Under the pieces are notes generated by a model. That model ran no database searches and was not told the DNA's origin. It saw nothing but the letters and a program-made list of their open reading frames with translations. From IMG/VR virus record IMGVR_UViG_3300008120_000012, positions 1 to 64,000 of that record: DNA of 64,000 nucleotides; one strand, given 5' to 3'. How positions within the stretch are numbered: position 1 is the first letter of the stretch; every line of letters begins with the position of its first letter. The position numbers and the translations under genes are program-made. The stretch is from a virus. Shown piece after piece: positions 3,088 through 55,052 of the stretch.

Positions 3088-3764
3088 GTCCAATTATTCC
3101 AGCAGTTCCAGCATCTGGTGGCCATCAGCCAGGTACACCAACTGTAGGAACAGCAAGTGCTGGCAATGCTTCTGCAACAGTTGCTTTTACAGCGCCAGCA
3201 TATTTGGGAAAACCAACTGGAACAACTTATAGAGCAATAACTCAGCCAGTAGTTGTTAGAAGTACAACTGGAACAGTTGCAAACAATGTTCAAATCGGAT
3301 CTATATGGAGAGCAGATATTACTGGTATGTCTGCAGTTACAAACCTTTTTATTAATCAAGTAATTTCGGCAACAAACGGAACTGGATCTTTGGGCGCTGG
3401 TGTTGTTACAATTAAGGCTATTCCATCGTCTACCTCTCTTATTGTTGAGTCAACAGCAACAATGACAAATGGAACTATTACTAATATTTTAGGTGGAATT
3501 GTAGGTACTGGCTCAACATCTCCAGTTACTGTTAGCGGATTAACAAACGGAACAGCATATACTTTTAGACTTAACTTAGATAATACAGTTGTTCAATCTT
3601 TGCCAACAGGAGCAAGTAACTCTGTTACTCCAATTGCACCACCATTCTTCCCGCCATTCTTCCCGCCATTCTTCCCACCGTTCTTCCCACCGTTCTTCCC
3701 ACCATTCTTCCCACCGTTCTTCCCACCACCATACTTCTCATTCATCTGGGGCGCATCTCCTTAA
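3084..3764 (+). CDS. FN3-like domain virion protein (probable fibre tip) with C-terminal (PPFF)x7-PPPYFSFIWG tail
   Basis: ATG 3084 overlaps the upstream TGA (ATGA). FN3 motifs PGTPTVGTASAGNASATVAFTAP and VTVSGLTNGTAYTF...SNSVTP, then a Pro/Phe repeat tail. Confidence 0.75.
   Translation: MSPIIPAVPASGGHQPGTPTVGTASAGNASATVAFTAPAYLGKPTGTTYRAITQPVVVRSTTGTVANNVQIGSIWRADITGMSAVTNLFINQVISATNGTGSLGAGVVTIKAIPSSTSLIVESTATMTNGTITNILGGIVGTGSTSPVTVSGLTNGTAYTFRLNLDNTVVQSLPTGASNSVTPIAPPFFPPFFPPFFPPFFPPFFPPFFPPFFPPPYFSFIWGASP
3639..3722 (+). repeat. 12-bp tandem repeat x7 (ccRccRttcttc) encoding PPFF
   Basis: Seven in-frame units differing only by cca/ccg synonymous changes. Confidence 0.95.
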
Positions 3765-3796: not shown

Positions 3797-4537
3797 ATGA
3801 ACAAATTATTTGATAGTTTTTATTTCCTGCATGTTCCAAAAACTGCTGGTAGATTTTTTACACATAATATTGTTGTTCCATTAGACAAAATACTTAAAGA
3901 GCACGGTATAGAAAATTTTTACGATAGAGAAACTTATGTTGCTCATAGGTTTTGGGCAGACTTTATAACAGATAAAACATATGTTACTAGTTTGTTCAGA
4001 GATCCGATCAAGCATGCAGTAAGTTTTTATTCTCATTATGCAATGTTAGATAGAGGTGCTCAAAGAACTATGCCAGTCGGAGCGATGCAATTTAATAAAA
4101 ACACCATGATGGATTGGTTTGAAAATAATAGTCATAGAATTGGGAATATGCAATCTAAAAACTTTTTGTTATCAGATTTAGGTGGTAAAGAATATGGATT
4201 TATGAATAGTGAAAAGGTAATTAATTGTGAAATATCAAAAGAAATAATGATTGAAAGATTACAAGATGTTTCGCTATTAATTAAATCTGAACAATTACAT
4301 CATCAAAATATACAAAATGTTTTTGATAAAATACTTCAAGATTTAAAAATACCACAGCATCAAATTAAACATAATATTCAGAAGGCATCAAATTATTGGA
4401 ACCCTGATTCAACAAGAATATACAAAAGTTTAGATAATACAGACAGGAATAGAATTTTAGAGTGGAATAATGTAGACGCAGAGGTTTACCATACAGAGTC
4501 TGTATTCTATAATATAAATACGAAAGTTAATCAATGA
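3797..4537 (+). CDS. PAPS-dependent sulfotransferase family protein
   Basis: FLHVPKTAG (5'-PSB loop) and FRDP..HAVS (3'-PB) motifs. Start likely ATG 3797, 7 nt after TGCTAGAAT. Confidence 0.75.
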   Translation: MNKLFDSFYFLHVPKTAGRFFTHNIVVPLDKILKEHGIENFYDRETYVAHRFWADFITDKTYVTSLFRDPIKHAVSFYSHYAMLDRGAQRTMPVGAMQFNKNTMMDWFENNSHRIGNMQSKNFLLSDLGGKEYGFMNSEKVINCEISKEIMIERLQDVSLLIKSEQLHHQNIQNVFDKILQDLKIPQHQIKHNIQKASNYWNPDSTRIYKSLDNTDRNRILEWNNVDAEVYHTESVFYNINTKVNQ

Positions 4538-5118: not shown

Positions 5119-5913
5119 GTGATAAAAAAAATATCAGAAGCAGTTTCAAATTTAATTATTTTTAGATCCTTCCGTCCTTGGCTCAATAATGAGAGTAACT
5201 CTGTTCCCTTGCCAACTCATAAAACAATGCCAAAATGGTACAAAGATGCAGATAGATTTGCAATTCATCCAATCACAAAAGATTATTATAAGGCGACAAA
5301 AGAAGTGTGTCCATTTCCACGACAAGGCACAACGGATGACTATGGCAAAATACCAACTTGGAAAGCATGCCCAGCAATCATGGATGGTTTTATTACAGGG
5401 TATGTTCTAAGAACTCCATGTGATATTACATTTTTTAAAGACAAGTATGGGAAAATAGATGTTAGTGTTAGTGATGAGAAGCATAAAGATTTTTGTACAA
5501 GGAGACAGCCTATGCCACAGTTTGAGCATCCACAGGGCTACTATCAAGAACATTTTGCATGGATGCCAGACTGGGGTCTAGAAGTTCCAGAAGGATACAG
5601 TTGTTTATATATGACTCCAATGAATAGATTTGACTTACCATTTTTAAATACAACTGGTGTTGTAGATAATGATAGCGTTCATATATCTGGAAGTTTTCCA
5701 TTTTTTGTAATTAAAGATTGGGAGGGAACAATTCCAGCAGGGACTCCGTACATGCAAATACTTCCTTTTAAAAGAGAAGATTGGACACATGAGATAGAGA
5801 TCTTGCAGCAAAAAGAAATTTATGATAGAATGATGGACAACATAAAACTATATCGTCAGCCAGACGGTGGGGTTTATCAAAATGACATTTGGACAAGAAG
5901 AGAGTATAAATAA
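5119..5913 (+). CDS. DUF6065-like (dUTPase-like fold) protein
   Basis: KACP...GYVLRTPCD, GYS...PMN...GVVDND and IPAGTP.MQILP; distantly paralogous to 6571..7287. Confidence 0.5.
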   Translation: MIKKISEAVSNLIIFRSFRPWLNNESNSVPLPTHKTMPKWYKDADRFAIHPITKDYYKATKEVCPFPRQGTTDDYGKIPTWKACPAIMDGFITGYVLRTPCDITFFKDKYGKIDVSVSDEKHKDFCTRRQPMPQFEHPQGYYQEHFAWMPDWGLEVPEGYSCLYMTPMNRFDLPFLNTTGVVDNDSVHISGSFPFFVIKDWEGTIPAGTPYMQILPFKREDWTHEIEILQQKEIYDRMMDNIKLYRQPDGGVYQNDIWTRREYK

Positions 5914-5914
5914 A

Positions 5915-6571
5915 ATGCAAACATGGAGTGCTAAAGAAGATCTTGGCAATGGAATTTATTGCTATAGAGATGTAATTAAACCAGAATTTGATATTATTAA
6001 CATATTAGAAAAAAATCTTGGCGCTATTGATAGCGAAAATGTTTTTAAGTGGAGACCAGCATATGTTGGTTATCAACAATTAATTCCAAGTTATCGTGAT
6101 TGTGTTGATTTTAAGTTTAAAAAAGAAGATATTCAACATATAGATACAGAAGAGTCATTAATTTTTCAAGATATGTGGCAAAAGGTTTATGATGCACAGC
6201 GTGTCGCAGTTGATGATTATCGTAAAGATTTTAATATTATGGATTTAAAATATTGGGAAGCCTTTAATTTTATTAAATATGGCCCAGGACAACACTTCCA
6301 AGAACATCATGATCATGGCTATTCTTATAACTGTACAGTTTCATTGGTTGCCTATGTTAATGATGATTACGAAGGTGGAGAGTTGTATTTTAGATTACAA
6401 AAAATGAACATCAAGCCAAAGGCTGGAGATTTATATGTGTTCCCATCTAACTTTATGTATCCACATCGTGCAATGCCCGTTCATTCTGGAACAAAGTATT
6501 CAATTGTAACAATGTTAGACTATAATAAAAAGTTTCATACAAGAGAGATGTATGTAGAAGACACAGAATAA
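5915..6571 (+). CDS. 2OG-Fe(II) oxygenase, prolyl 4-hydroxylase-like (#1)
   Basis: HHD, YVNDDYEGGELYF, distal H (PHRAMPV) and K (GTKYS). Start ATG 5915. Confidence 0.9.
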   Translation: MQTWSAKEDLGNGIYCYRDVIKPEFDIINILEKNLGAIDSENVFKWRPAYVGYQQLIPSYRDCVDFKFKKEDIQHIDTEESLIFQDMWQKVYDAQRVAVDDYRKDFNIMDLKYWEAFNFIKYGPGQHFQEHHDHGYSYNCTVSLVAYVNDDYEGGELYFRLQKMNIKPKAGDLYVFPSNFMYPHRAMPVHSGTKYSIVTMLDYNKKFHTREMYVEDTE

Positions 6572-7287
6572 TGAAAGTATCTGTTTATAAAATACCAAAC
6601 CATCCAGTTAAAATAGAACAAACTCAAGTTCAGAGGAACTGGATGGATGATACTTATGACAGACACGCATATAAATGCTTTCCTGTATCTCTTGCTAACT
6701 CCATTGGCTGGTCTATATCTTTTTTAGAAGACATAGAGTTTGTTTGGGATGGTGTTGTAGATACAACTCAAGATCATGTTAAAATATTAAAATCACCACC
6801 GAATGTTTGTAACTTAGGTCGTGGAAATGCAACAATAAGTTTTAATAGTGGTTTATATTTTCGTACTGATGAAAATACATCTATTATTTCTATTGTCCCA
6901 CCAAATTATTTTATAGATGGCGCAACACCATTTACGTCAATAATGTCTACTTCATTTTATGATGAGGCTTTTCCAATTGCATGGAGAATAACTAGGTCAC
7001 ATCAAAATATTGTAATTCCTGCAGGCACTCCAGTTGCTACATTAATTCCAGTTTCACTTGAAAAACTTTCTTTGATTGAGTTAGAGGTATATGACAAAAC
7101 TTTTGATCCAGAGGCCCTGCAAGAAAAAAGGGAATACCTAGAAGAATGGAAAAAAATATCAGAGCAGGGCAAGTTTAGTAATTTTTATAGAGATGCTGTT
7201 GATCATAAAGGGCAAAGCATAGGCAGCCATGAAAAAAAGTCTTTACACTTAAAAATAACAGATTTAACTACAAAAAACGAGAGGTGA
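6571..7287 (+). CDS. DUF6065 family protein
   Basis: RNWMD...HAYKCFPVSLANSIGW, PPNYFIDG and IPAGTP motifs. Confidence 0.65.
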   Translation: MKVSVYKIPNHPVKIEQTQVQRNWMDDTYDRHAYKCFPVSLANSIGWSISFLEDIEFVWDGVVDTTQDHVKILKSPPNVCNLGRGNATISFNSGLYFRTDENTSIISIVPPNYFIDGATPFTSIMSTSFYDEAFPIAWRITRSHQNIVIPAGTPVATLIPVSLEKLSLIELEVYDKTFDPEALQEKREYLEEWKKISEQGKFSNFYRDAVDHKGQSIGSHEKKSLHLKITDLTTKNER

Positions 7288-7299
7288 TATAATAATAAT

Positions 7300-8022
7300 A
7301 TGGAAATCACAAACAAGAATCACTTAGATAGAGTCGCAAAGTCTATTACGCCTTCTGGATTTTATGGAACTGGCAAAGACATGATTGTTGAACTTGAAAA
7401 CTTTATGACACAGGAAGAGATTGATTTTCTAGAAAATGCTGCAAAGTCTATAACTATTTGGGATGTTACAGAAAGTCATCAAAATGACAACGGTACTGTT
7501 ATTTATGATGCTAACTATTGGAAAGATAGAGTGGCAACTAGGTCTAGTCTAGATAAAAATGATCCCAGAATTGGTCCAGTAATTGAAGGCCTATTTAAAA
7601 AACTACAACCAATTATTGAAGACTTTTTTAAAGTTAAAGTTCAACCAACTGGACAAACAATTGTAAGATGGCTTCCTGGACAATTTCAAAAACCACATGC
7701 AGACAAAGAACTTCATGAGGGTCCTGATGCTGGACTGGCTAATGATTTTCCATACTATGATCTTTCAAGTTTATTTTACTTAAATGATGACTACGAGGGT
7801 GGAGAGTTATATTTCCCGTTGCAAGATGTTAAGTTTAAACCAAAAAAAGGTGCAGCATATTTTTTCCCAGGAGACATGAACTTTATCCATGGAGTTACAG
7901 AAATTAGAAATGGTATTAGATACACCTGTCCATTCTTTTGGACCATTTTAGAACATACTGGAGAAGTAAAGCCAAATCAAAATGAAAAGTACCACAGGAC
8001 ATTGTTGGATGGTGATAAATAA
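7300..8022 (+). CDS. 2OG-Fe(II) oxygenase, prolyl hydroxylase-like (#2)
   Basis: HAD, YLNDDYEGGELYF, HGV, GIRY. Confidence 0.9.
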   Translation: MEITNKNHLDRVAKSITPSGFYGTGKDMIVELENFMTQEEIDFLENAAKSITIWDVTESHQNDNGTVIYDANYWKDRVATRSSLDKNDPRIGPVIEGLFKKLQPIIEDFFKVKVQPTGQTIVRWLPGQFQKPHADKELHEGPDAGLANDFPYYDLSSLFYLNDDYEGGELYFPLQDVKFKPKKGAAYFFPGDMNFIHGVTEIRNGIRYTCPFFWTILEHTGEVKPNQNEKYHRTLLDGDK

Positions 8023-8024
8023 AT

Positions 8025-8765
8025 ATGAAAGAGATTAGATATTCAGAGGATATTTTAGTATATGAAGATTTTCTTACACCTGAAGAATGTCAAAAAATTA
8101 TTGATGTTTTAAATTTGCAGGTAAAGAATGAAACAATGCAATGGACACCTATAACATTTTACGAATCATATTCATCTAATTTACCAAAAGATAATGATCC
8201 AGAAATTTTAGAATGTGGTTTGCCAGGAACCTTTTTTTCAGATATTGAACAAAAGATTATAGAGATAACTGCAAAGATTCATAATAAAGATCCAAAACAG
8301 ATGTCTAAAATTGGATATCACACACAAAAATGGGAAAAGGGAGCATATGCTACTGTACATGCTGATAACTCATATAATGATGGAACTCCAAGTCCATTTG
8401 AAAGAAGTAGATATGCAACGTTTGTATATTTAAATGAAGATTTTGAAGGTGGGATATTAAATTTCCCAGAACGACAAATACAGATAAAACCTAAAACTGG
8501 GCTACTTGCTGCTTTTGCTGGAGATTACACAAATTTGCATGAAGTTACAATGATTACAAAAGGCACTAGATATACCTTGGGATCTTTTTGGGATGATAGG
8601 GACGCTGAAGACTATCCAGAAGAAGTAAGAAATAGATGGGAAGAAGAAATGAAAAAAATTAGAGAGTCTCAAGAAGAAACAAAGGCTGAATGGAAAGAGT
8701 TGTTAGACGAAGGATACAAGATTGATCCTATCGGAAATAAATACAAAGTGGAGGAACAAGCATGA
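8025..8765 (+). CDS. 2OG-Fe(II) oxygenase, prolyl hydroxylase-like (#3)
   Basis: HAD, YLNEDFEGG, HEV, GTRY; charged helical C-terminal extension. Confidence 0.9.
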   Translation: MKEIRYSEDILVYEDFLTPEECQKIIDVLNLQVKNETMQWTPITFYESYSSNLPKDNDPEILECGLPGTFFSDIEQKIIEITAKIHNKDPKQMSKIGYHTQKWEKGAYATVHADNSYNDGTPSPFERSRYATFVYLNEDFEGGILNFPERQIQIKPKTGLLAAFAGDYTNLHEVTMITKGTRYTLGSFWDDRDAEDYPEEVRNRWEEEMKKIRESQEETKAEWKELLDEGYKIDPIGNKYKVEEQA

Positions 8766-9532
8766 AGTTAGAGAAAAGGTTACATGAAAACATCTATTAC
8801 TATACAGATGTTTTGCCAGATCATGAAAAATTTCTTAATTTAATTTTAGAGACAGATGGTAATCCAGACATACAGCCAGTAATTCCATCATGGCAAAAGT
8901 GGCTTTCTAACTCAAATGACGGCTACTCCTTTGGTGGTAAAAAAGATATGCAGCCAAACAATTTGCACCTACTTTCTGGTGAAACAAAAGAGAAGGCAGA
9001 GTACATTGTTGACTCAATATTAGGTTCAATAAAAAAGGTTGCAGAGGCTTTCATACAAGATAGAGGGCTAGACATACCAAATCCAAACCTTTCTCCTTTT
9101 GCTGGAATAATGAAATATATTCCAGGATTAGAAATGGGTGCACATTTTGATGCACAGGCTGGAGATGAAAGTCTTTGGTGGTCTATTATAGTTTATGTAA
9201 ATGATAACTATGAGGGCGGAGAACTTTCTTGGATTCTTCATGATAAAGATCTAAGAGATCCACAGTACAGCCATTTGAAGCCACACTCAGATATTAATGA
9301 CCCTAGAAATGAGGAACTTGTTGACTTTTGGATTAAGCCAGTTGCAGGATCTGCATTGATCTTTCCATCTACTTTCCCATATCGTCATCAAGTACATTTA
9401 ATGAAGTCTGGTGATAAGTATATGTTCCCTGGTTTTATTTTTAAAGATGGATATGATCCATCAGATCCAGAATCTATTGAAAAATTTAATGGTGGCTCAA
9501 AGGTGGTAAAAAAGAGTCCATATGAACAATAA
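8762..9532 (+). CDS. 2OG-Fe(II) oxygenase, prolyl hydroxylase-like (#4)
   Basis: HFD, YVNDNYEGGEL, HQV, GDKY. Confidence 0.9.
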   Translation: MKLEKRLHENIYYYTDVLPDHEKFLNLILETDGNPDIQPVIPSWQKWLSNSNDGYSFGGKKDMQPNNLHLLSGETKEKAEYIVDSILGSIKKVAEAFIQDRGLDIPNPNLSPFAGIMKYIPGLEMGAHFDAQAGDESLWWSIIVYVNDNYEGGELSWILHDKDLRDPQYSHLKPHSDINDPRNEELVDFWIKPVAGSALIFPSTFPYRHQVHLMKSGDKYMFPGFIFKDGYDPSDPESIEKFNGGSKVVKKSPYEQ

Positions 9533-10334
9533 TTTTGATTATAGTAATGATTCTTATGATATAGAATTTTTACATCCCAAGGTTTGGTTATTTAAAAATG
9601 CCTTCAAGCATAGTAAAGAAATTATTGATTACTTTGAAAAAAACCATGAATGGAGAAAATGGGAAATTTTTGGTACAGAGTCCAAAATATCAACACCAGA
9701 AAAAACATATTCTAACTTTCCGACCAAAGAAGAATGGAAAAATGATATAGTTGATCATGTTAATAATGAATATGTAACAGAATTTTTGTGGGTATTTTAT
9801 AATACAACAAAATTGTTTTGTGAAAAATTAGATATTAAAAAGGATAACTGGATTTTTACAACAACTGAAATATCAAAATATTATGAAAATATGGGTGTAT
9901 CTAATGATGGCGCTATGAACTTTCATACTGATCATGAACAAGAAAAAGAATCTGAAGAAGGAATTAAATTTGGAACTGCTTGTTTAGTTTATTTAAATGA
10001 TGACTATGAAGGCGGAGAGATTGTTTTTAGAATATCAGATGATAGTTTTAGTAAGGTAGTTGATGAATTTTCCTATAAGCCAAAAACTGGCGATGTGTTA
10101 GTTTTTCCATCAGAACATCCGTTTTATCACGCAGTAAATGCAATTAAAAATAAACAAAAATATTTAATAAGACATTGGTGGAGACATTGGTACCAAGGCA
10201 GTCAAGAATTTATAGATCTAAAGAATAAGTTTATGTTAGAAAATAATCCAGAAGACTGGGAAAAATATTTAATAGATTATCGTAGATCAAAAAGAATTAA
10301 CATAGATACTATTATAAACCAATTACAAAAATGA
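9522..10334 (+). CDS. 2OG-Fe(II) oxygenase, prolyl hydroxylase-like (#5)
   Basis: HTD, YLNDDYEGGE, HAV, QKY. Confidence 0.9.
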   Translation: MNNNFDYSNDSYDIEFLHPKVWLFKNAFKHSKEIIDYFEKNHEWRKWEIFGTESKISTPEKTYSNFPTKEEWKNDIVDHVNNEYVTEFLWVFYNTTKLFCEKLDIKKDNWIFTTTEISKYYENMGVSNDGAMNFHTDHEQEKESEEGIKFGTACLVYLNDDYEGGEIVFRISDDSFSKVVDEFSYKPKTGDVLVFPSEHPFYHAVNAIKNKQKYLIRHWWRHWYQGSQEFIDLKNKFMLENNPEDWEKYLIDYRRSKRINIDTIINQLQK

Positions 10335-11002
10335 TACTAAATAAAAAAGCCTTAGTTATTGGAGGAACCTCTAGCATATCCCATGAAATAATTGAAACAC
10401 TTAATAGCAACGGGTATTTTGTTGATTTAACTTATAATAATATAGAAAATTTTAAAAAAAGAAACATTTATTCTGATAAATATGTAAGTTGGCATTATTT
10501 AAACCTGCACGATCTTGATTGTATAAAAAATTTTATAAATACAAAAATAGAAAACTATTATTCTATTGTAGTTTTTATTTCAATGACGTCTCCTGGTAAT
10601 TTTATGGAAAATACTGAAGAAGAACTTGTTAATTTTTATGGCAAATATCTTGTTAATAATATGTTGATGTCAAAATATTTATTAAATAAAATTACTAATG
10701 ATGGTAAAATTATCTATATATCCTCTATTGCAGTTACTAAACCAGTTCCACAAATTAATTATGCAACTATAAAAGGTGCCCTACAGTCTTTTTACGTATC
10801 GCTATCAACCAATGTTAAACCAACACAGACTGTCATATCCATAATTCCAGGGCTAATATATGATACCCCCGCTTTTTATAGGTGTAGTTTGGACATGATA
10901 GACAATATAGATAACCTAGCAAAAAAACAAGAAATTGCTGATATAATAATTAACTGTAGTCCAAAAGATAATGGAACTCTCATTAGAGTAGGGAAAGACT
11001 AA
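10331..11002 (+). CDS. short-chain dehydrogenase/reductase (SDR), divergent
   Basis: ALVIGGTSSIS Rossmann start, IIYISS, YATIK (YxxxK), IIPG. Confidence 0.75.
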   Translation: MILNKKALVIGGTSSISHEIIETLNSNGYFVDLTYNNIENFKKRNIYSDKYVSWHYLNLHDLDCIKNFINTKIENYYSIVVFISMTSPGNFMENTEEELVNFYGKYLVNNMLMSKYLLNKITNDGKIIYISSIAVTKPVPQINYATIKGALQSFYVSLSTNVKPTQTVISIIPGLIYDTPAFYRCSLDMIDNIDNLAKKQEIADIIINCSPKDNGTLIRVGKD

Positions 11003-11003
11003 T

Positions 11004-11465
11004 ATGGAGCAATTAAAAGTAGAGCATAGCGACATGGTTGATGACTATATAAGTCAGGTTAAAGATAAAACTGCTAATTCTTATATGCTAACAATTGCTA
11101 GAGACGGAGAAGAGCCAGTTAGAACTATTATATTTTATGATAATGCTATAGATGCTGCATTTGCTTATAATAAATATACAGACTGGGGTTTTGCAAGAAA
11201 ATTTTTAACTGTTAAATTATATGAACCATCTGGAAAAATAAATGAAAAAGTTCTTGTTAGAGATCAGGCTGGAGAATGTACCTTTATAAGACAGGACTAT
11301 ATAGATTTTGAAAATTTATTGTTTATTTATAAAGATAAAATTGAAAAAGATGTTTATGACTCTTTAGTATTTGATGTTATGAAAATTTTTGCTAAGGATA
11401 ATTGGAGGTTTAATCCAGAAAGATTTTTATTAGCATTAGGTGTAAATAAAAGGTTAGAACTATGA
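11004..11465 (+). CDS. hypothetical protein
   Basis: 153-aa ORF tightly packed in the operon; no catalytic motif recognised. Confidence 0.6.
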   Translation: MEQLKVEHSDMVDDYISQVKDKTANSYMLTIARDGEEPVRTIIFYDNAIDAAFAYNKYTDWGFARKFLTVKLYEPSGKINEKVLVRDQAGECTFIRQDYIDFENLLFIYKDKIEKDVYDSLVFDVMKIFAKDNWRFNPERFLLALGVNKRLEL

Positions 11466-12082
11466 AATATGAGTTTTTAGAAAATAACATTGTTTACTTT
11501 GAATCTGTAATACAAAATGTTCAAGATATTATAGACACAATGGAAGGCTTATCAAATCCAGCAGTTACTGACTGGGAGGCATGGTATGCATATAATACAA
11601 CAACAAGATATGGCGATATAAAATACTTGTGCAAAAAAGAACTAATCGGTATTGAAGATAGAATTATTAAAGAAAAATCACAATTTGTTATTGAATCCTT
11701 AATTAATAATATGTGTGCTTGTATTGATAAATATGGAGAATTGTTTAATATTAATACAAATAAAATGATATTTGCTAAAGAAATTTTAAACAATGACTTC
11801 ACTAAGATTGGCATCTATAAATATTCTCAAAATGCAACCATGGGACCACATGTTGACTGGAATGATGACAATAATTATTTAGAATATACTATAGTTGTAT
11901 ATCTTAATGACGACTACGAAGGTGGAGAGTTGTACTTCAATGAATTTGATATTAAACTAAAGCCAAAGGCTGGTAGCATTGTTATGTATCCATCAGTTAA
12001 ACCATACACACACGAATCTTTAAAAGTGGTAAGTGGAAGAAAATGTTTGATTACTCATCATTGGAGAAATGATGAAATTTAA
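11462..12082 (+). CDS. 2OG-Fe(II) oxygenase, prolyl hydroxylase-like (#6)
   Basis: HVD, YLNDDYEGGELYF, HES, GRK. Confidence 0.9.
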   Translation: MKYEFLENNIVYFESVIQNVQDIIDTMEGLSNPAVTDWEAWYAYNTTTRYGDIKYLCKKELIGIEDRIIKEKSQFVIESLINNMCACIDKYGELFNINTNKMIFAKEILNNDFTKIGIYKYSQNATMGPHVDWNDDNNYLEYTIVVYLNDDYEGGELYFNEFDIKLKPKAGSIVMYPSVKPYTHESLKVVSGRKCLITHHWRNDEI

Positions 12083-12091
12083 GGAGCCACT

Positions 12092-12760
12092 ATGGAATTA
12101 AAACCAATACAATCAACAACGTTAATGGATTATGAAAGTGGTCAAAATGTTGAAGTAAAGCAGTTTCAAGTAGAAGACTTAATTTTAAATCATGAATTTG
12201 CCACACCCCACGCAGGCTTTGCCCTTAGATTCAATAACGATAAAAAAGACGGTACCTTTTTAGAAATTGGTGCATGTCATTGGAAGCAGGGTAATAATAC
12301 ATATCTTTTAGAAAAAGAATTTAATTGGAAAGGTGTTGCTATTGATATAGTGAAACATTTTGCTGACGACTATAATATAAATAGATCAAGTCACTGTATA
12401 CATGGAGATGCTTTTTCATATAATTGGGATCAGTATTTAAGTGAAAACAATTTTCCAAAAAGAATAGATTATTTGCAAATAGATGTTGATAAAACACCAG
12501 ATTGGGCAAATTTATTTGCTTTGCTTAATGTTCCATTATCTAGATACAGATTTAATACAATTACTTTGGAGCATTGTGCAAATATGGATCCAAGACTAAT
12601 GAAAATGAGAGATTTACAAAGAGAGATTTTATTTTCTTATGGATACAGAATTGTTGCTGCTGGGTATGATGAGGATTGGTGGATAGATTCGCAACTAGGA
12701 ATTAGTGAGTCAGAATTTAATTCAATTTCTTATCAAGCATGGGCTAAAAAGTTTATTTAA
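12092..12760 (+). CDS. FkbM-like SAM-dependent methyltransferase
   Basis: GTFLEIGA motif I, NNTYLLEKEFNWKGVAID, IDYLQIDVD, ITLEH. Confidence 0.75.
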   Translation: MELKPIQSTTLMDYESGQNVEVKQFQVEDLILNHEFATPHAGFALRFNNDKKDGTFLEIGACHWKQGNNTYLLEKEFNWKGVAIDIVKHFADDYNINRSSHCIHGDAFSYNWDQYLSENNFPKRIDYLQIDVDKTPDWANLFALLNVPLSRYRFNTITLEHCANMDPRLMKMRDLQREILFSYGYRIVAAGYDEDWWIDSQLGISESEFNSISYQAWAKKFI

Positions 12761-13296
12761 AAATTTTTAATAAAACTTGTGTTTTCATTACCTTTTATAA
12801 AAATAGTAAACATATATCTAGTGCCAGTTTCTACTGGAAGGACAGAATGCCAATAGTCCCATTTATGAACTATAACAGATTTTGCTTTAGGTTTTATTTT
12901 ATAATCTAATTCTGGGTAATATAGTTCCCCACCTGTAAAATTATCATTAACATAAAAAACTGCTCCAAATACAATATTTGTATTGGTGCCAGATGGATCA
13001 AAATCTTGATGCTCACTCATATACATTCCATCTTTTAGTCTTTGTAAATCAATTACTTCTAAATATGAAGTATAGTTTTTAAAATATTTCATTAGTTTTT
13101 CTTCTAAACTTCTAAAAGTTGGTATTATTTCTGTTTTAAAATTATTAATATTATAGTTTCTTCCACCAACATCTTGCCATTCATTTTCAGAAACGTGATC
13201 TATAGCATCATTTAGCAATGCAATTTCTTCATTTGTAATAAAGTTTTCCAGTTCCCAGATATAATCATGGTGTTGTATTATATTTATATTATACAT
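12757..13296 (-). CDS. 2OG-Fe(II) oxygenase, prolyl hydroxylase-like (#7)
   Basis: HQD, YVNDNFTGGELYY, HSV, GTRY; its stop overlaps the convergent gene at TTAA. Confidence 0.9.
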   Translation of the reverse strand: MYNINIIQHHDYIWELENFITNEEIALLNDAIDHVSENEWQDVGGRNYNINNFKTEIIPTFRSLEEKLMKYFKNYTSYLEVIDLQRLKDGMYMSEHQDFDPSGTNTNIVFGAVFYVNDNFTGGELYYPELDYKIKPKAKSVIVHKWDYWHSVLPVETGTRYMFTIFIKGNENTSFIKNF

Positions 13297-38255: not shown

Positions 38256-38259
38256 GAAC

Positions 38260-38799: not shown

Positions 38800-38879
38800 T
38801 AAAAAGGCTGTTATAATTGTCTTGAGGAAACACAAACGCCGTACAACTTAATAAAAAACTAAAAAGAAGAGGTGATATT

Positions 38880-39527: not shown

Positions 39528-39547
39528 TAATTTAATACAATAAGAAA

Positions 39548-39584
39548 CAACAGGCCCGTCTTTTTAGACGGGTCTTGTTGCTTT
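39548..39584 (+). terminator. intrinsic terminator after the major tail gene
   Basis: caggcccgtc-ttttta-gacgggtcttg then ttgcttt. Confidence 0.7.
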
Positions 39585-39601
39585 ATGATAGAATATAAAA
39601 T

Positions 39602-40306: not shown

Positions 40307-40357
40307 TAAAAATATCTTATTATGCTATAATTGACTTAACCTAATTAGGAGGAAATA

Positions 40358-40672
40358 ATGTCAACAACCACATACGAAGCACAAACGCTTACGCTTATGG
40401 ACGGTACAGAGGTTACTGTAAGACCTCTAAAGATATCACTACTTCGCCAATTTACCAAAAAGTTTGAGGGTATTGGTGATGTTCAAGAAGATAATGATAA
40501 GTCTATGGATCTTCTTCTTGAGTGTGTAGCAATCGCTATGCAACAATACAAGCCAGAATTGGCAGATGTAAAGAAACTGGAAGAGATTATAGATCTTCCA
40601 ACGGTCTATAAAGTAATTGAGGCTGCCTCTGGTGTTCCAATTACTGACTTGGGCCAACCAAAAATTGCATAA
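40358..40672 (+). CDS. tail assembly chaperone, short (G-like) form
   Basis: Directly upstream of the tape measure; strong SD aggagga; own TGCTATAAT at 40323. Confidence 0.7.
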   Translation: MSTTTYEAQTLTLMDGTEVTVRPLKISLLRQFTKKFEGIGDVQEDNDKSMDLLLECVAIAMQQYKPELADVKKLEEIIDLPTVYKVIEAASGVPITDLGQPKIA

Positions 40673-40688
40673 GTAAAGAGGTGAATAG

Positions 40689-48308: not shown

Positions 48309-51300
48309 GTGTGGCAAAATGATGAATTAAAAAATCATTTAGAAACATCTTTTACTGTTCAGTCTCAAACTGCAGTAGTTGCTGAATGGAATATGAACGT
48401 TCCTGGTAATATTTTTAAAATGGGTAATTATAGATATCGTAAAAATGATTCTACTTCTGATTATTTTAAAATTCCAAACTTTTTTGATCCACTTGATGAA
48501 AGTAATCATTATACCAATGCAACTGATTCAGATGTTGTTATAGAAAGTGGATTAGAAACAGATACAGTAACTCCATTATTGTTTACGTATACTAAAGAGT
48601 TAGAAAAATTATACTATTCCCTAGAAGATTGTTTTAAACCATACAGGCCAAGATCAGGAATTAACAAGGCATCATTTTTTAATAATAAATATTTTTCTCA
48701 TCCAAATCAAGATATGTATTTAAGACCAAGATATTATATGCCACACCGAGATGACCAATTTAAGTATTGGAGATCTTACAGAACCGAAAGTTTAGCATTA
48801 GAAGATGGATACGTAACTATACAAAGTAATAGTATCCCAATCCCATTGACTAGCGATAATAGCAACAAAGAGTACGGTATATCAAAATATGATAACGCTA
48901 ATGGTATATATTCAATTGACGATGCTTGTCCTTTCGTTGTTTATAAAGAGTCAGTTCCAGCAAATAGAATTATATGCAAAGTACAAACTAACATTGGAGA
49001 TATAAATCTTGGACCGTTTAAAAAAGATGGAGAAATTTTAAATGATCCATTTTATGGTCAAGAAAATGCAACAACTCCTGTAAGATTTACTATTCAATAT
49101 TTAAGTGAATATAATGAGTGGATAGATGCCTATTCATTTAATGAAGATTCGCTAAGGGATGATAATACTGATATTTTTAATAGTGACGGGTATCTAAGTT
49201 TACAGTATGGGCTAGAAGTTCCAGATGCTTTTAAAGATAACTTTATTCTTGTAGGAACATCTACATCTGCTTCATCACTACCAACAAACAATGTAAAGGG
49301 ATATGCCTATTTAGTTAAAAGTACATCTTCTAGTCTTGGTATTTTGTATATTTGGAATGGCTCTGGATATTCTCAATTTACTCCAAAGTACAGTTGGAAA
49401 ATTGGAACTGACGGTGTATATGAAAATACACAATTTGTTACTGATTTTACAAATCCAGATTATTTTATAGATAGCAATGTTTTTGGTAAAATATTTAGAG
49501 AGTTTGTTTTTATTAAAGGTCTTAGAGTTGTTGTAGAAACAATGAATGTTCCAAATGTACCATTTGAATTAATTGAACTATCTCCTAGACTAGTAGCAGA
49601 TATGACTAATAAAACTATTAGTTTTTCAACTAGTAAAGTTTTATCTGATTTGGGAAATTCGTCTATACCCGTAGGAAATTTGCTGGCATCTACTGGGTCC
49701 ATATCTATTTTTGACAATGATAGTTCTTTCAATGAAAATAATATTTGGGATGGAAATGAAGGAAGTATAATAGCAAAATATTTTGATAAAACAATTAAGT
49801 TCAATATATACGAGGTTATCAGAGAAGTAAATGATGTTAACTATTACATTCCAATAAAAACTTTGTACACTGAGGGAATGCCACAAACAAACGCTATAGA
49901 TGGCAACATAAGTTTTGCATTACGAGATTTTTATTTTTATTTTGAATCAGTTAAGGCTCCAGAAATATTAATAACAGAAGCATCTTTAAGTCAGGCAGTG
50001 GCTATTCTTTTAGACCATATTGGTTTTTCTAATTACATTTTTAAAAGACTTTCTAATGAAAAAGATCCTATAATTCCATACTTTTTTGTTGCTCCAGAAC
50101 AAAACGTTGCAGAAGTTTTAAGACAACTTGCAATATCTACACAATCAGCAATGTATTTTGATGAATACAATAATTTTGTAGTTGTTAGTAAAAATTATTT
50201 ATTAGATGAAACTGACGAAAGGCCAGTAGACATTGTGTTATATGGATCTAATAATTCATCAGAAGTTGGTATAAACAAAAACGTATACCCAAACAAACTT
50301 TCTAATATTATAGGAATATCTTCTCAAAACAAAAAAATATATAATGATGGTAATATTACATATACTGAAAGATATATTCAAAGATCTTATGGAAGTATTA
50401 AACAATCTCAAATGGTTGACCAAGATAAAACTTTTATATATAAACCAGTTTTGTTATGGGAAGTTTCTGGATCTGCTAAAACAAAAACGGCAAATAATGA
50501 AATGCAGTCAACATATGTATTGAGCGCATTACCATTAAACTCTGATCTTGATAATAATCCACCAAGTGTAGTTAATAATATTTTGATTAATAATACTATT
50601 GATTTTGGAGAAAATGTATATTGGCTTGGAAGATATCAAGGATACTTCTATGCTGCTGGAGAAATAATTAGATTTGATGCAGTTCAATATAATATACCAG
50701 GGGTGGGCAATGAATGGATAACCAGTGGTTTAGAGTATCAAAAATATTTTTCACAACTGCCATTTAATGGAAAGATGTATCCTACTGGATTAGTAAGAAT
50801 ATACGCAGAGCCATATTATGAAACAATTAATGGCAATACTGTGTTAAAAAACGGCGAGGTAGCACAACACGGCAGAGAACAATTTGGAACTACTATACAA
50901 TATCATAATGCTGGATTAGATAGTTATTGGTCAAGCAATGATTATGTTCAGGGTTGCGATATGCAATCAGAGTTACTGTATACAACAAAAATTGACCCTA
51001 CACTTCCTGCAGTTACCAATGGTGTTGCTGGTCTAAATAAAAGTAAAGCAGAAAAATCAAAAAGAAATGGTATTATTAAAAACTTATTTGCAACTTCATA
51101 TGCAACTGAAACAGATGTACCATTATTAAAAACTACTCAAACTGGAACAATACAATCTTCCGCTCTTGTTTTTAATGGACCTATATTTGAAGCCACAGAA
51201 AAATCAAGGGACTTTGTTTCATATGTTTGGAAAGAGTTAGACAGGCCTTTTAAATGTTTTGGAACAAGAATGAGAATTATTGGAAGAATTGAATCTAACG

Positions 51301-52712
51301 GAGAATCAAATCAAACACCAGTAGGATCAACTACATATTTTAATATAACTGGCATAGATCCAACAAAAACAGTTACGCTGGGTGGAGGCTCTGGAGGTAT
51401 TTGTCTTGTTAATCCAACAACAAATCAGGGTTATTACTTTGAAATTGCAGCCCTGACATCTTCTAATTTAAATAAATATTTAAATACAAACTCAAGTGGT
51501 GAGGCAACTAACAATCTAGACAACATTTTATTTTATAAGGTGCAAAGAAATTCTAGCACTGGAAGGGCAGTACCAGTAAAACTATGGGGCGGTATAGGAA
51601 ATATACTAGTTGACAGTGGTGAGTTTACTGGACAGTATAGAGTAGTTAATGAAAAAAATCCTACAGTATATGATTTAACAATAGAGTATATGGATATAAA
51701 TTCTAACAGAAGAGTGTTTTATTTATATATTAATAATAAATTAGTTCAAGTTGTTACTGACACATCTCCTATACCAATTACTGGAAATCAGGTTGGACTC
51801 TTTGTGCGTGGCTCAACAAAAATTATGTTTGAAAATATTTATGCACTTGGACAAAATTACTCTCAAAATTCTTCATTCCCAACTGGAATTCCAATCTCTA
51901 AAGTTTTTGGTGATGATGATGGAGAGATTAATGCAAATGAGTCTTTGAGTAAATATGCTATGAGTGGTATTATACAAAAAACATACATGAAAGGCATTAT
52001 GCCGATGTGTATGCCAGTATATGATATTTTTTATGATGAATTTGGTACTATTATGAGAGAGGCATCTTATTTTAAAGTTAAATATGATAAAGCATATCCA
52101 GCATTATATGCAAAAATAGCAGCAACTTTTAATAGGTTAAAGGGCTATGTTATCTCTGGTTTTATGGCAGAATCATACGGTGCAGAATTTTTAGTATTTA
52201 ACGCTACAGATACTACAATTAGTTTAGATGAAACAAGTGGCAACTATTTAAGAATTCAAGGCATAACATTTACGCAAGATACCACTCATACTTTAACAGT
52301 AGATGAGTATTATAAAAAACGAGGTAACTTGTCTGACCCTGAATTAAAGGGAAATGTATTGGTAACATCACCACAAAGATTTATTGATGAATATGATTCT
52401 ATTCGTGTTAGCAGAATACAATATGGAAGAAATGAATTTACATTACAAGGTGTATATATTCAAGATCAAGACACGGCAGAGGATATACTAGGTTGGGTTA
52501 TTGGCAAAACATCTAAGCCTAAAAAAACTATCGGTATGGAAATATTCTCTATACCAACGCTTCAATTAGGAGATATAATTAATATTGATTATAAGACAGC
52601 AGATGGTGTTGATGTTATTTCTGACTCCAGCACAAGGTATGTTGTATATCAAATTGATTATGGTAAAAGTGTTGATGGCCCAATAATGTCTTTATATGCG
52701 GTGGAGGTGTAA
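48309..52712 (+). CDS. large tail tip / baseplate hub protein
   Basis: 1467 aa after Dit; VLRQLAISTQSAMYFDEYN and PTLQLGDII hub motifs; GTG start. Confidence 0.7.
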   Translation: MWQNDELKNHLETSFTVQSQTAVVAEWNMNVPGNIFKMGNYRYRKNDSTSDYFKIPNFFDPLDESNHYTNATDSDVVIESGLETDTVTPLLFTYTKELEKLYYSLEDCFKPYRPRSGINKASFFNNKYFSHPNQDMYLRPRYYMPHRDDQFKYWRSYRTESLALEDGYVTIQSNSIPIPLTSDNSNKEYGISKYDNANGIYSIDDACPFVVYKESVPANRIICKVQTNIGDINLGPFKKDGEILNDPFYGQENATTPVRFTIQYLSEYNEWIDAYSFNEDSLRDDNTDIFNSDGYLSLQYGLEVPDAFKDNFILVGTSTSASSLPTNNVKGYAYLVKSTSSSLGILYIWNGSGYSQFTPKYSWKIGTDGVYENTQFVTDFTNPDYFIDSNVFGKIFREFVFIKGLRVVVETMNVPNVPFELIELSPRLVADMTNKTISFSTSKVLSDLGNSSIPVGNLLASTGSISIFDNDSSFNENNIWDGNEGSIIAKYFDKTIKFNIYEVIREVNDVNYYIPIKTLYTEGMPQTNAIDGNISFALRDFYFYFESVKAPEILITEASLSQAVAILLDHIGFSNYIFKRLSNEKDPIIPYFFVAPEQNVAEVLRQLAISTQSAMYFDEYNNFVVVSKNYLLDETDERPVDIVLYGSNNSSEVGINKNVYPNKLSNIIGISSQNKKIYNDGNITYTERYIQRSYGSIKQSQMVDQDKTFIYKPVLLWEVSGSAKTKTANNEMQSTYVLSALPLNSDLDNNPPSVVNNILINNTIDFGENVYWLGRYQGYFYAAGEIIRFDAVQYNIPGVGNEWITSGLEYQKYFSQLPFNGKMYPTGLVRIYAEPYYETINGNTVLKNGEVAQHGREQFGTTIQYHNAGLDSYWSSNDYVQGCDMQSELLYTTKIDPTLPAVTNGVAGLNKSKAEKSKRNGIIKNLFATSYATETDVPLLKTTQTGTIQSSALVFNGPIFEATEKSRDFVSYVWKELDRPFKCFGTRMRIIGRIESNGESNQTPVGSTTYFNITGIDPTKTVTLGGGSGGICLVNPTTNQGYYFEIAALTSSNLNKYLNTNSSGEATNNLDNILFYKVQRNSSTGRAVPVKLWGGIGNILVDSGEFTGQYRVVNEKNPTVYDLTIEYMDINSNRRVFYLYINNKLVQVVTDTSPIPITGNQVGLFVRGSTKIMFENIYALGQNYSQNSSFPTGIPISKVFGDDDGEINANESLSKYAMSGIIQKTYMKGIMPMCMPVYDIFYDEFGTIMREASYFKVKYDKAYPALYAKIAATFNRLKGYVISGFMAESYGAEFLVFNATDTTISLDETSGNYLRIQGITFTQDTTHTLTVDEYYKKRGNLSDPELKGNVLVTSPQRFIDEYDSIRVSRIQYGRNEFTLQGVYIQDQDTAEDILGWVIGKTSKPKKTIGMEIFSIPTLQLGDIINIDYKTADGVDVISDSSTRYVVYQIDYGKSVDGPIMSLYAVEV

Positions 52713-52716
52713 AACT

Positions 52717-53532
52717 ATGGCAATGAGTGCATCAGAATGGGATGACTTAAATAGTATGCTCCCTGCAGAAGACCAAATGTCTTATCAAGATTATTTGGCT
52801 TCAGTTACTCCAGCATCAGATCCAAACGCAGATACTTTTAGTCCATCATTCACTGACTACTGGTCTAATTCTGGAGACTATTGGATGGCCATGGGTGATA
52901 AATATGCTGCAGAGGCTGCTGCTGCTACGCCATACATTGCACCGCCATACTTTTCATTTATTTGGGGTGGCGCTCCAAGAGAAACGCCTCCTGCTGAGCC
53001 GTACGTTCCTCCATACGTTCCGCCATACGTTGCTCCATATGTCCCTCCATATGTTCCTCCATATTTCCCCTCAACTCCTCCACCCCCTCCACCCCCTCCA
53101 CCGCCTCCACCACCTGTAAAAACGGCTACTCCTCAATATGTACTATTTGATGATGACGAAGTTCCTATTGATGCTATAGTAGATCTTTTATTTGAAGATA
53201 TTGGTGGACAAGAATTATTGTTAACAGGTAGATTTGATACTATTAATGGAATAGATGTTGCATATCAGCCAATCGCTAATCTTGGTATTATTAATGAAGA
53301 ATACAACCCAAACAATATTATTAGGTTACAAAATACATCTGATAAATTCTTTGCAAACTATACAATTAAATTATCAGAAAGAATACCAGTGGTAGGCAAT
53401 GGTCCAAATGGCGATAATGTTTACTTAGATTCTAGTGGTAATCTTGTAATTGAATTTGTTAATCTTCAAAATGATGAGCAGGTTGAGGTTCAGGTTACAT
53501 TAAATGGTACAATATATGAGATAGGAATATAA
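52717..53532 (+). CDS. tail-tip-associated protein with Pro/Tyr-rich N-terminal extension
   Basis: ATG 52717 after the SD ggaggt. Contains PPYFSFIWG, (xPYV)x5 and a 13-Pro run before a globular acidic C-terminal domain. Confidence 0.7.
   Translation: MAMSASEWDDLNSMLPAEDQMSYQDYLASVTPASDPNADTFSPSFTDYWSNSGDYWMAMGDKYAAEAAAATPYIAPPYFSFIWGGAPRETPPAEPYVPPYVPPYVAPYVPPYVPPYFPSTPPPPPPPPPPPPPVKTATPQYVLFDDDEVPIDAIVDLLFEDIGGQELLLTGRFDTINGIDVAYQPIANLGIINEEYNPNNIIRLQNTSDKFFANYTIKLSERIPVVGNGPNGDNVYLDSSGNLVIEFVNLQNDEQVEVQVTLNGTIYEIGI
52999..53115 (+). repeat. PYVP tandem repeats and polyproline-13 tract
   Basis: PYVPPYVPPYVAPYVPPYVPPYFPST then 13 Pro codons (53077-53115) using mixed synonymous codons. Confidence 0.9.
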
Positions 53533-55052
53533 TGATAACAGAAACTGGCAAAGAGATTATTGCAAAGTATTTGATGGGTTTAACCCCAGCATATGCTTCG
53601 TATATTGCTATAGGCTGTGGGGCTAAACCAAGACCAAATGTAACTCAAATAACAGGAGTTTCTTCTTCTGGTACCACCATCACCTGTGCATCTACAAGCG
53701 GCCTTTGGGTGGGTGCAATTTTGTCACAAGTTACTGTTGGGACTGGAGTTTTAGCAACCAATACTGCGGTAGTAACAATAATCAGTGGAACACAGTTTAC
53801 AGTAGATCAAGCACCAACAACTCCACTATCTTCAGCAACAGTTTCAATAAAAACTGATAATAGAAAAACTGTTTTAGATTTTGAAACACTTCGTATTCCT
53901 ATTTCATCAAGAGGGTATATCAATGATAATGGTATAAATAAAATTGTATTTACTGGCGAATTGCCAACAGAAGAAAGGTATGAGATTTCAGAAATAGCAA
54001 TTTATTCAGCAGGGTCTAATCCTTCTGCAGCATCCTTTGATAGCAGAGCGTTATTTACATTCACTGACGCTGAAAACTGGCAATACAATGATGGAACAAC
54101 TCTTTCTGCTCCTACATCCATACTTAGTTCATTAACAGATGGATCAAACAATATAACATCAGTAGCAAATGCAATTCAGACTACAGCAAATAACACAGCA
54201 TTTTTAAATGCAACAAGAGCGGGAAGATATGAAAGATGTAGATATTTTAATAATGTTATTATGTTGCGTGGAAATACTTCACATCTAAGTTCAAACACTG
54301 GTGTATTTACTGTAGGATCTAATCCAAAACTGTTGCAACTAACTGGACAAACATTTAATTTTAGTCAAAACTCTCCATCAGATTTAATTAAGATTGCATT
54401 TTCTATTGTAAATGTTACTGGAGGATCTGGTTTAAGCCCAGACAAGGCAAGAGTGCTTATTGAATTTAGTAACACAGATGGAACTCAGTATGCTCGTTTT
54501 AACGGAGAAGCACTAAATTCAACTTTTAATTTTAATACTAATAGATATATGGTTGTTAAAAAAAGATTAGATGAATTAACATACTCTGCAACGTTTTCAT
54601 GGCAGGCAATGTCAATAGTTAAAATTTATGTTAGTGCTTTATATAATTTAACAATTACAAACAAGGCTGCCGATACAACATATGTTACATTAACCACATC
54701 CTCAGCACATAACCTGAGTGCAGGAGATAATGTCCTTGTTGCTGGAATTGACTCAAGATGTAATGGCCAATTTGTAGTTTTTGATACACCAACACCAACT
54801 ACTTTTAGATATGCTAATGCTGGAACTACTCTTTCTTCAACTGCTGTTTCTCCCAACGTTGTAATTGAAGCATCTTTATCATCATATTTTATTGCCTTAG
54901 ATGCAATAAGATTTGATAATGTTGGAACCATTAATCCATTATATGGAATGACTGGTTATAGTATTGTACAAAATTCTGATGCAGCAACAGTTGTTAAATC
55001 TTCTAACTCAAACAACTATGTAGAGTTTAGAGTTGTAGTGGATGTGACCTGA
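53532..55052 (+). CDS. baseplate/tail structural protein
   Basis: MITETGKEIIAKYL...YIAIGCG and YEISEIAIYS are typical baseplate N-terminal motifs; two inserted beta modules. Confidence 0.65.
   Translation: MITETGKEIIAKYLMGLTPAYASYIAIGCGAKPRPNVTQITGVSSSGTTITCASTSGLWVGAILSQVTVGTGVLATNTAVVTIISGTQFTVDQAPTTPLSSATVSIKTDNRKTVLDFETLRIPISSRGYINDNGINKIVFTGELPTEERYEISEIAIYSAGSNPSAASFDSRALFTFTDAENWQYNDGTTLSAPTSILSSLTDGSNNITSVANAIQTTANNTAFLNATRAGRYERCRYFNNVIMLRGNTSHLSSNTGVFTVGSNPKLLQLTGQTFNFSQNSPSDLIKIAFSIVNVTGGSGLSPDKARVLIEFSNTDGTQYARFNGEALNSTFNFNTNRYMVVKKRLDELTYSATFSWQAMSIVKIYVSALYNLTITNKAADTTYVTLTTSSAHNLSAGDNVLVAGIDSRCNGQFVVFDTPTPTTFRYANAGTTLSSTAVSPNVVIEASLSSYFIALDAIRFDNVGTINPLYGMTGYSIVQNSDAATVVKSSNSNNYVEFRVVVDVT

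Follow-up and report, generated by a model that had tools for sequence, protein, structure and literature searches.

Plant extensins and proline-rich wall proteins carry short Pro/Tyr/Val repeats that are hydroxylated by prolyl 4-hydroxylases (P4H), and the P4H of Bacillus anthracis has collagen-like Gly-Pro-Pro peptides as its substrate. Phage receptor-binding and tail-tip proteins are modular and swap host-recognition modules. A P4H of the chlorovirus PBCV-1 and viral proline-rich repeat peptides were reportedly described by Eriksson et al. in 1999. Virus-encoded P4H with proline-rich repeats is already in print, and one paper states that the use of the viral enzyme "remains cryptic" (PMC9301287). 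Also in print are hydroxylase-sulfotransferase operons with fibre substrates: Iyer, Abhiman, de Souza and Aravind (2010) set out bacterial operons in which tail-collar or collagen-like proteins go together with dioxygenases and sulfotransferases, and a passage of the same paper proposes secondary-metabolite synthesis for the tandem dioxygenase arrays of cyanophages (PMC2938197). Here we analyzed a stretch of 64,000 nucleotides (the window), which is the first 64 kb of the IMG/VR virus record IMGVR_UViG_3300008120_000012 (94.6 kb, estimated to be 88% complete). The gene under study (the target) lies in the tail module and encodes an N-terminal arm rich in Pro, Tyr and Val repeats followed by a conserved C-terminal domain (C-domain). 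A cassette of 2-oxoglutarate (2OG) oxygenase genes lies 40 kb away in the same window.

Like modular tail proteins, the target combines a conserved attachment part, a linker and a fast-changing, putatively exposed module, with LysM-type swaps among its relatives, but its polarity differs and its conserved domain has no match in Pfam, PHROG or among solved structures. On balance, we favor the reading that the arm serves for adhesion or as a spacer and is an exposed module, open to exchange, on a conserved tail-tip anchor of a long-tailed, uncultured freshwater phage. The likeness to PBCV-1 is that the virus encodes P4H-type 2OG oxygenases together with short proline-rich repeat proteins as possible substrates. 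Whereas PBCV-1 is a virus of a eukaryotic alga and has one enzyme, the window comes from a bacteriophage and has seven paralogues; its repeats are proline-aromatic (PYVP, PPFF) with a run of 13 prolines (Pro13), those of PBCV-1 are of the PAPK type, and the window is known from sequence alone. The systems of Iyer et al. are alike in that several 2OG dioxygenases are arrayed in phages, but the substrates in the relevant passages are bacterial collagen-like Gly-X-Y or tail-collar proteins, and proline-aromatic repeats, a shared tag and a distant second substrate are not described in those passages (PMC2938197). In a library of open-access full texts, we found nothing on proline-aromatic repeats in the tail proteins of phages or about DUF6065, and no account of a mobile PPYFS.LWGG unit, of a C-domain family with swapped arms or of an adjacency between PPY repeats and oxygenases.

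Several hundred freshwater phage proteins make up an unannotated family in which the C-terminal domain is fixed and the N-terminal module is exchanged freely. We searched 5.8 billion proteins at E ≤ 1e-3 and detected at least 413 relatives of the target, nearly all of which align over about half of the query, its C-terminal half. The target protein itself has no family match in Pfam, PHROG or NCBIfam. The C-domain contains 17 invariant columns among 122 sequences, at residues 156-254, and in alignments of 29 and 122 sequences the only invariant columns outside this interval are M1, P121, K135 and F144. The region before residue 120 has no common sequence in either alignment, and the arms of the homologues span 22-199 aa, also without common sequence. 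A first-pass annotation of this DNA had proposed such an alignment as a check, expecting a hypervariable arm and a conserved C-terminal domain, and this is the pattern that we obtained.

We tallied the arms in two sets, 113 distinct arms from the 120 best protein matches and 58 distinct arms from 79 IMG/VR loci. A run of at least five prolines stands before the C-domain in 68 of the protein arms and 11 of the IMG/VR arms, a LysM-like motif was found in seven and five, and arms shorter than 40 aa number 12 and one, respectively. Cys repeats (C.xGYxxDxxGNC), the N-terminal cap motif of the target and three or more PY[VIFT] units each occur in six protein arms, and the tag PPYFSFIWG occurs in three; all four are absent from the 58 IMG/VR arms. 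Pfam searches on the 122 members assigned LysM to seven, cEGF to five, Antistasin to three and FIVAR to three. In the same position, the arm of a relative may be of the LysM, Cys-repeat or coiled-coil type, may be rich in Ser/Thr or may be all but missing: the target form in G021, a complete relative of 118.8 kb, is 171 aa long and almost armless.

The annotation had called the target a tail-tip protein, and its placement within a tail module is borne out by gene order and conserved neighbors. The order is tape measure (PF10145, 40689-47657), a 216-aa protein, a 1467-aa minor tail protein, the target and a 506-aa tail protein. We compared the window genome with nine related records, and the succession of minor tail protein, target and tail protein is kept in all eight compared records that hold the target. 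The annotation had allowed that the true start might lie downstream of the arm. We place the start at 52717, 5′ of the arm, because a GGAGGTG site precedes this ATG and because an N-terminal motif, M.MS.SEW..LN..LP.EDQMSY, within the first 20-30 residues, recurs in six of the 113 distinct homologue arms, which otherwise differ.

Under the reading that we favor, the conserved 138-aa C-domain would hold the protein in the tail and the 133-aa arm would be the exposed, exchangeable module. The arm would consist, in order, of a helical cap, an aromatic helix, one PPYFSFIWG, six PY[V/F] units and a Pro13 rod, and would be built from the proline-aromatic vocabulary that is found at the distal ends of fibre proteins in this phage group. 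The proline tracts (PY[V/F]P and Pro13) would form a stiff polyproline-II stalk, and this stalk would hold the aromatic unit and the cap off the tail tip, where they would contact the host envelope. For the whole protein, AlphaFold2 (AF2) gave a mean predicted local distance difference test score (pLDDT) of 66.8 and a predicted template modeling score of 0.25, with most of the C-domain at 50-60, and the C-domain alone gave a pLDDT of 51.3. That the C-domain gave no good model by itself would be expected if it folds only as part of an assembly. Searching the Protein Data Bank (PDB) with a profile of the C-domain alignment gave no matches at E ≤ 10, and in the ESM Atlas the C-domain had no usable feature match, with all structure rows at TM < 0.5.

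Five points weigh against this reading. The designation "tail-tip" is taken from gene position alone and is accordingly best read as putative. Phage receptor-binding proteins usually have a conserved N-terminus and a variable C-terminus, and the target is reversed. Both repeat tracts are recent tandem expansions and could be nearly neutral. The C-domain could be a sugar binder, judging from CBM9_2 matches on 14 of the 122 members, all of which are sub-threshold (best E = 0.0057) and serve as a lead only. Finally, one homologue (P0124, 836 aa) has an arm, poly-Pro and the C-domain and then an extra region of 490 aa, and the C-domain can therefore bear extensions at both sides. P0124 was the sole protein from a search for longer forms, and we rejected the explanation that it is a fusion with the downstream gene.

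Table 1. Positions of the target gene, its parts and the other features discussed. Positions are those of the window unless a record is named.
Feature	Position	Strand	Details
Target gene, tail-module protein with N-terminal arm and conserved C-terminal domain	52717..53532	+	271 aa, stop included
Shine-Dalgarno-like GGAGGTG	52703..52709	+	8-14 nt 5′ of the ATG at 52717, direct reading
Whole arm	52717-53115	+	residues 1-133
N-terminal cap motif MAMSASEWDDLNSMLPAEDQMSYQDYLASV, two short helices, containing the first Asp-Tyr site (QDYL)	52717..52806	+	residues 1-30
Asp-Tyr sites QDYL, TDYW, GDYW	52786-52884	+	residues 24-27, 46-49, 53-56
Predicted aromatic/Ala-rich helix holding Asp-Tyr sites 2 and 3 (TDYW, GDYW)	52849..52926	+	residues 45-70
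Shared tag PPYFSFIWG	52942..52968	+	residues 76-84
Six PY[V/F] units of period 4, PYVPPYVPPYVAPYVPPYVPPYFP; 12-nt tandem repeat x5.2	52999..53070	+	residues 95-118
Pro13 linker; 9-nt tandem repeat CCTCCACCC x4.3	53077..53115	+	residues 121-133
Conserved C-terminal domain, presumed virion anchor	53116..53529	+	residues 134-271, 138 aa
Upstream neighbor, 1467-aa minor tail protein	48309..52712	+	phrog_10359 at 2.2e-55; 25% identity to the minor tail protein of Streptomyces phages
Downstream neighbor, 506-aa tail protein	53532..55052	+	phrog_9983 at 1.5e-9; order conserved
Other tag bearer, fn3-like protein ending (PPFF)7-PPPYFSFIWGASP	3084..3764	+	directly before the enzyme cassette
3797 protein, sulfotransferase-like (lead only)	3797..4537	+	motifs, Atlas feature matches
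Oxygenase cassette: seven open reading frames (ORFs) with PF13640 (2OG-FeII_Oxy_3), one DUF6065, one short-chain dehydrogenase	5867..13296		PF13640 above cut-off
Fibre-like protein, 525 aa, four tag units	L084 1029-2606	-	PYFPPPYFS[SA][LN]WGGGP between (PVA)n spacers, PFFPP repeats
Fibre-like protein, 563 aa, four tag units	L085 463-2154	+	PYFPPPYFS[SA][LN]WGGGP between (PVA)n spacers, PFFPP repeats
Fibre-like protein, 429 aa, three tag units	L223 544-1833	-	PFFPPTF repeats, metagenome contig

We assessed the parts of the arm individually. The Asp-Tyr sites, PPYFSFIWG, the PY[V/F] units and Pro13 are all present where the annotation had placed them. In the AF2 model of the whole protein, residues 1-30 form two short helices at pLDDT 90-95, the helix at residues 45-70 has pLDDT 68-77 and the proline tract 70-82. 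The cap motif is common to six homologues (P0001, P0015, P0017, P0024, P0036 and P0038), and the aromatic helix region is conserved in P0001, with the Asp replaced in P0015. The annotation had called the arm "extensin-like", a term that suits its composition, with periodic repeats of Pro, Tyr and Val for which a polyproline-II rod is expected, but not its detailed units. No extensin Ser-Pro(3-5) unit occurs in the arm, where Ser-Thr precedes Pro13 and the repeats are PY[V/F]P, and the arm sequence contains no Tyr-X-Tyr or VYK cross-link unit. The likeness is thus one of composition, not homology, and the arm also differs from extensins in that it has no signal peptide context and sits on a phage tail protein. 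The PPPY sequence was briefly considered as a WW-domain ligand, and this was dropped by reasoning alone, the host being a bacterium.

Pro13 is the sole run of six or more prolines in the six frames of the 94.6-kb genome. The annotation reported it as a run with mixed codons; the run itself stands, but the codon mixing does not, as a 9-nt unit is repeated 4.3 times. The PYVP tract and Pro13 look like tandem expansions and not like codon mixing kept by selection. We therefore weighed whether the arm repeats could be nearly neutral, low-complexity DNA that was expanded by slippage and is tolerated as a linker of which only length is needed. The tandem structure of both tracts would fit, as would the free variation of linker composition and length among the homologues and the breaking of assemblies within the repeat tract: metagenome contigs of four runs break within 53017-53114, hiding Pro13 length variation. 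However, the protein sequence is conserved in both the tag and the N-terminal cap, 68 of the 113 distinct arms retain a proline run before the C-domain, and PY-type repeats recur in the six closest arm types, and we consider a neutral origin improbable. Farther downstream in the gene, at 53164-53217 (encoding DLLFEDIGGQELL), the summed contig depth peaks 4- to 40-fold in four lake or freshwater runs, and this stretch is common to many related phages whose flanks differ.

The YFSFIWG core of the tag has exactly two copies in the genome, both of which lie within proline-aromatic tracts. The second copy of the tag (3726-3752) is at the C-end of ORF 3057-3764 and is identical in protein sequence, with five synonymous differences. 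Because five synonymous differences accompany nine identical residues, the tag is a conserved peptide and not a recent DNA copy, and it is unchanged in one variant contig that overlaps it. The protein that carries this second copy, in which (PPFF)7 precedes the tag, probably starts at the ATG at 3084 (MSPIIPAV...). Its MSPII start equals the first residues of fn3-like/PPY/Hint-like proteins in G024 and G026, and from this start the N-termini of the two types of repeat protein found next to cassettes appear to be homologous.

We searched for the tag in other genomes. A degenerate DNA pattern matched three IMG/VR loci, namely the fibre-like proteins of L084 and L085 (Table 1) and a third, fragmentary one of their type. 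A scan of metagenome contigs matched 35 stretches, only one of which is genuine (L223); the other 34 fall in short ORFs with no proline richness and are due to chance. In these fibre-like proteins the unit has the form PYFPPPYFS.LWGG and is located in C-terminal tails, and among the target homologues, tag units are borne by the arms of P0004 and P0014 (a double unit) and P0001 (a single unit). As the tag is found in both fibre tails and target arms, the unit moves as a module within one freshwater phage group. The genes next to the fibre-like protein in L084-L086 encode a 195-204-aa HxD-type protein and a protein that starts with MKKIFFQLYNPCGLFNQ and has no family match.

The tag could alternatively be an assembly or docking signal for a common partner, such as a virion site, a chaperone or a cassette protein, that recruits both bearers, in which case the repeats would be mere spacers. 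This would account for a tag that is identical in two otherwise unrelated proteins, with synonymous changes only, that shifts in modular fashion from fibre tails to target arms or back, and that is confined to the phage group, as judged from the single genuine metagenome match and the three IMG/VR loci. Up to four tag copies per fibre tail, however, suit multivalent surface binding better than one-to-one docking, no partner was identified, and the PFF proteins of G007 are without the tag. We regard a docking role as unlikely, although less so than neutral repeats, and retain the adhesion or spacer arm as the preferred reading.

The oxygenase cassette raises the possibility that the arm is modified. 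For ORF 5867-6568, the solved protein that is closest in sequence is the B. anthracis P4H (PDB 3itq, 5hv0; E = 1e-3), with weak similarity over about 70 residues. In the genome comparison, (PPFF)n proteins were found in G000, G007, G021 and G022, which are exactly the four of the ten compared records that have 5-10 oxygenases. Four others (G008, G009, G012 and G015) have the same syntenic place, from the fibre genes to the ribonucleotide reductase, without (PPFF)n or cassette. Because (PPFF)n and the cassette are adjacent, this pattern represents one island that comes and goes and not two independent associations.

To extend the comparison to other lineages, we used an IMG/VR pattern for PYVPPYV, which matched 85 stretches; 80 loci were examined and read in frame. 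The tally of PF13640 leaves out 15 loci of a chance class of 64-85 aa and three records that were not retrieved. PF13640 was present in 8 out of 14 records in one scan and in 1 out of 48 in another. Long, non-acidic PPY[V/T] repeat ORFs are accompanied by PF13640 in 9 out of 9 records, compared with 0 out of 53 others, with the caveat that these classes were set post hoc. The nine comprise fn3-like/Hint-like proteins of 336-365 aa (6/6 records; these labels are below Pfam cut-offs), PYVDPYV/Hint-like proteins (2/2) and a 1083-aa protein (1/1), and they represent three gene contexts, which leaves roughly three independent events in addition to the phage group of the window. The records without PF13640 are those of an acidic-repeat class (0/7) and the remaining PYVPPYV records (0/46). 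The acidic class (L131, L145, L148, L166, L167, L175 and L181) consists of small phage proteins with PPYVPPYVPPYVPP followed by long DDDVIDDD... repeats, and its records are mostly fragments, the most complete being 83%.

The first PF13640 ORF lies 0-1.2 kb downstream of the repeat gene in G024, G026, G027, G031 and G054, and about 2.5 kb off in G032, beyond adjacent HxD..H ORFs; in all six of these inspected neighborhoods a cassette begins right behind the repeat gene. It is adjacent in G033, by coordinates only, and the nearest oxygenase in G025 is 4.6 kb from the repeat gene. The order in G024 is collagen-repeat fibre, repeat protein, JmjC_2, Oxy_3, a 194-aa ORF, Oxy_3, a 248-aa ORF, Oxy_3 and two DUF6065. 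The cassettes of these other lineages resemble that of the window in having both Oxy_3 and DUF6065. In L211 (G024 38000-47000), L212, L214, L215, L217 and L213 (G027), the repeat protein starts with MSPII or MPI... and has an fn3-like part, long PPY[V/T]PP repeats and, at its C-terminus, a Hint-like part (CF..G.P.LMADG); this fn3-like/PPY/Hint-like protein sits between the collagen-repeat fibre and the JmjC_2/Oxy_3/DUF6065 cassette. The Hint-like domain comes right after the repeats and therefore suggests self-cleavage that would release the repeat-bearing half. Beside their cassettes, G024 and G026 have collagen-like X-Pro-Gly fibres, and such fibres also occur in the fibre modules of G007, G021 and G022. 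No collagen-like fibre was seen in G000, whose contig is cut at that end.

On this evidence, the arm might be a second in-trans substrate of the P4H-like cassette, beside the (PPFF)7 protein, with prolines of PY[V/F]P or Pro13 converted to hydroxyproline and perhaps further modified at the new hydroxyl. The same genome encodes the P4H-type enzymes, with seven PF13640 ORFs, and the arm shares an identical 9-aa tag and proline-aromatic repeats with the protein directly before the cassette. (PPFF)n and the cassettes occur together in four records and are both missing in four others, PF13640 accompanies the long PPY[V/T] repeats in all nine records and neither the acidic class nor the rest, the cassette directly follows the repeat gene in five inspected records, with G032 at a greater distance, and Oxy_3 and DUF6065 are common to those cassettes and that of the window. 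Against this, we note that the repeat classes were defined after the data had been seen and that the nine records, with their three gene contexts, are non-independent. Collagen-like fibres, beside the cassette (G024 and G026) or in the fibre module (G007, G021 and G022), are a canonical P4H substrate, and 40 kb separate the arm from the cassette. The target arm of G007, which has nine oxygenases, is without PY repeats or tag, the target of G021, which has 10, is armless, and PYVP repeats occur without PF13640 in all seven acidic-class records, most of them fragments. The oxygenase link to the arm is circumstantial, although apparently better than chance. We treat the arm as a possible but not probable substrate; hydroxylation of its proline tracts by the P4H-like oxygenases of the phage is held at the same tentative level, and the exchangeable-arm reading is independent of it.

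The annotation further suggested that the Asp-Tyr sites of the arm are Tyr-sulfated by the protein encoded at 3797. This protein had no match in Pfam, NCBIfam or the PDB (phmmer), and we found 38 homologues besides the window's own, none of which carries a protein name. Its PKTAGR and RDP...S motifs are invariant or nearly so in 23 homologues and resemble the two motifs of sulfotransferases that bind 3′-phosphoadenosine-5′-phosphosulfate. A profile of the 23 sequences matched only two cytosolic sulfotransferases in the PDB (E 0.24-0.28), aligned on the second motif, and neither the protein nor its profile matched the solved structures of tyrosylprotein sulfotransferases (TPST). Its Atlas feature matches, viral clusters with PF03567 on 22% of members, point to Sulfotransfer_2. 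We take the 3797 protein as sulfotransferase-like, as a lead, and not demonstrably a TPST. Among the nine compared records, a homologue was found only in G021, at about 93 kb (53% identity), again after an fn3-PFF protein that bears the tag; in G007 the PFF proteins lack the tag and a 3797-type gene is absent, and the link between tag and enzyme is limited to two genomes.

The arm has the three Asp-Tyr sites that the annotation reported, but their excess is marginal (three observed against 0.87 expected when the arm was shuffled 20,000 times, P = 0.043) and their Asp is not conserved, being replaced to give QY and NY in P0015 and AEY, DSY and ETY in the N-motif. The arm offers no conserved Tyr in an acidic, unstructured context, and the second and third sites lie within the predicted helix. 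Sulfation of these sites by the 3797 protein would be in keeping with the invariant motifs, the Sulfotransfer_2 indication and the adjacency in G021. Given the marginal excess, the replaced Asp, the helical position and the lack of a significant match of the 3797 protein to TPST or any other sulfotransferase, or in Pfam or NCBIfam, we judge it very improbable. The passage of Iyer et al. on operons with hydroxylase and sulfotransferase predicts O-sulfation of the hydroxyl newly made by the dioxygenase, and not of Tyr, and this prediction fits the gene order of the window better than Tyr sulfation (PMC2938197).

We compared the window with isolated phages and with metagenomes. Among 50,697 records of isolated phages, no match was detected by tblastn with the target protein or by megablast with 48309-55052, whereas near-identical DNA was found in lake and freshwater metagenomes from at least two independent studies. 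RNA datasets were not among the runs listed with this DNA. The class II (B12-dependent) ribonucleotide reductase of the window (25094-27145) has 86-88% protein identity across seven related records, and the structural genes around it are far less conserved (35-80% identity).

Of the genes of aquatic phages that still lack an explanation, arrays of 2OG-Fe(II) oxygenases are some of the commonest. The arm, the shared tag and the recurrent adjacency of PPY repeats and cassettes make the idea of a proline-rich substrate concretely testable. More speculatively, and with less confidence than for hydroxylation of the arm itself, aquatic phages may run an extensin-like system of their own, in which PPFF, PPY[V/T] and PPYFS.LWGG modules at fibre tips and the tail-tip arm would be the real substrates of multi-gene 2OG oxygenase cassettes, sulfation or another step would follow, and the modified rods would set the contact between tail and host. 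If so, the long-unexplained oxygenase arrays of aquatic phages would gain a structural role, and the arm would be a substrate encoded 40 kb from its enzymes. The target family is a candidate marker for host-range change in uncultured lake phages.

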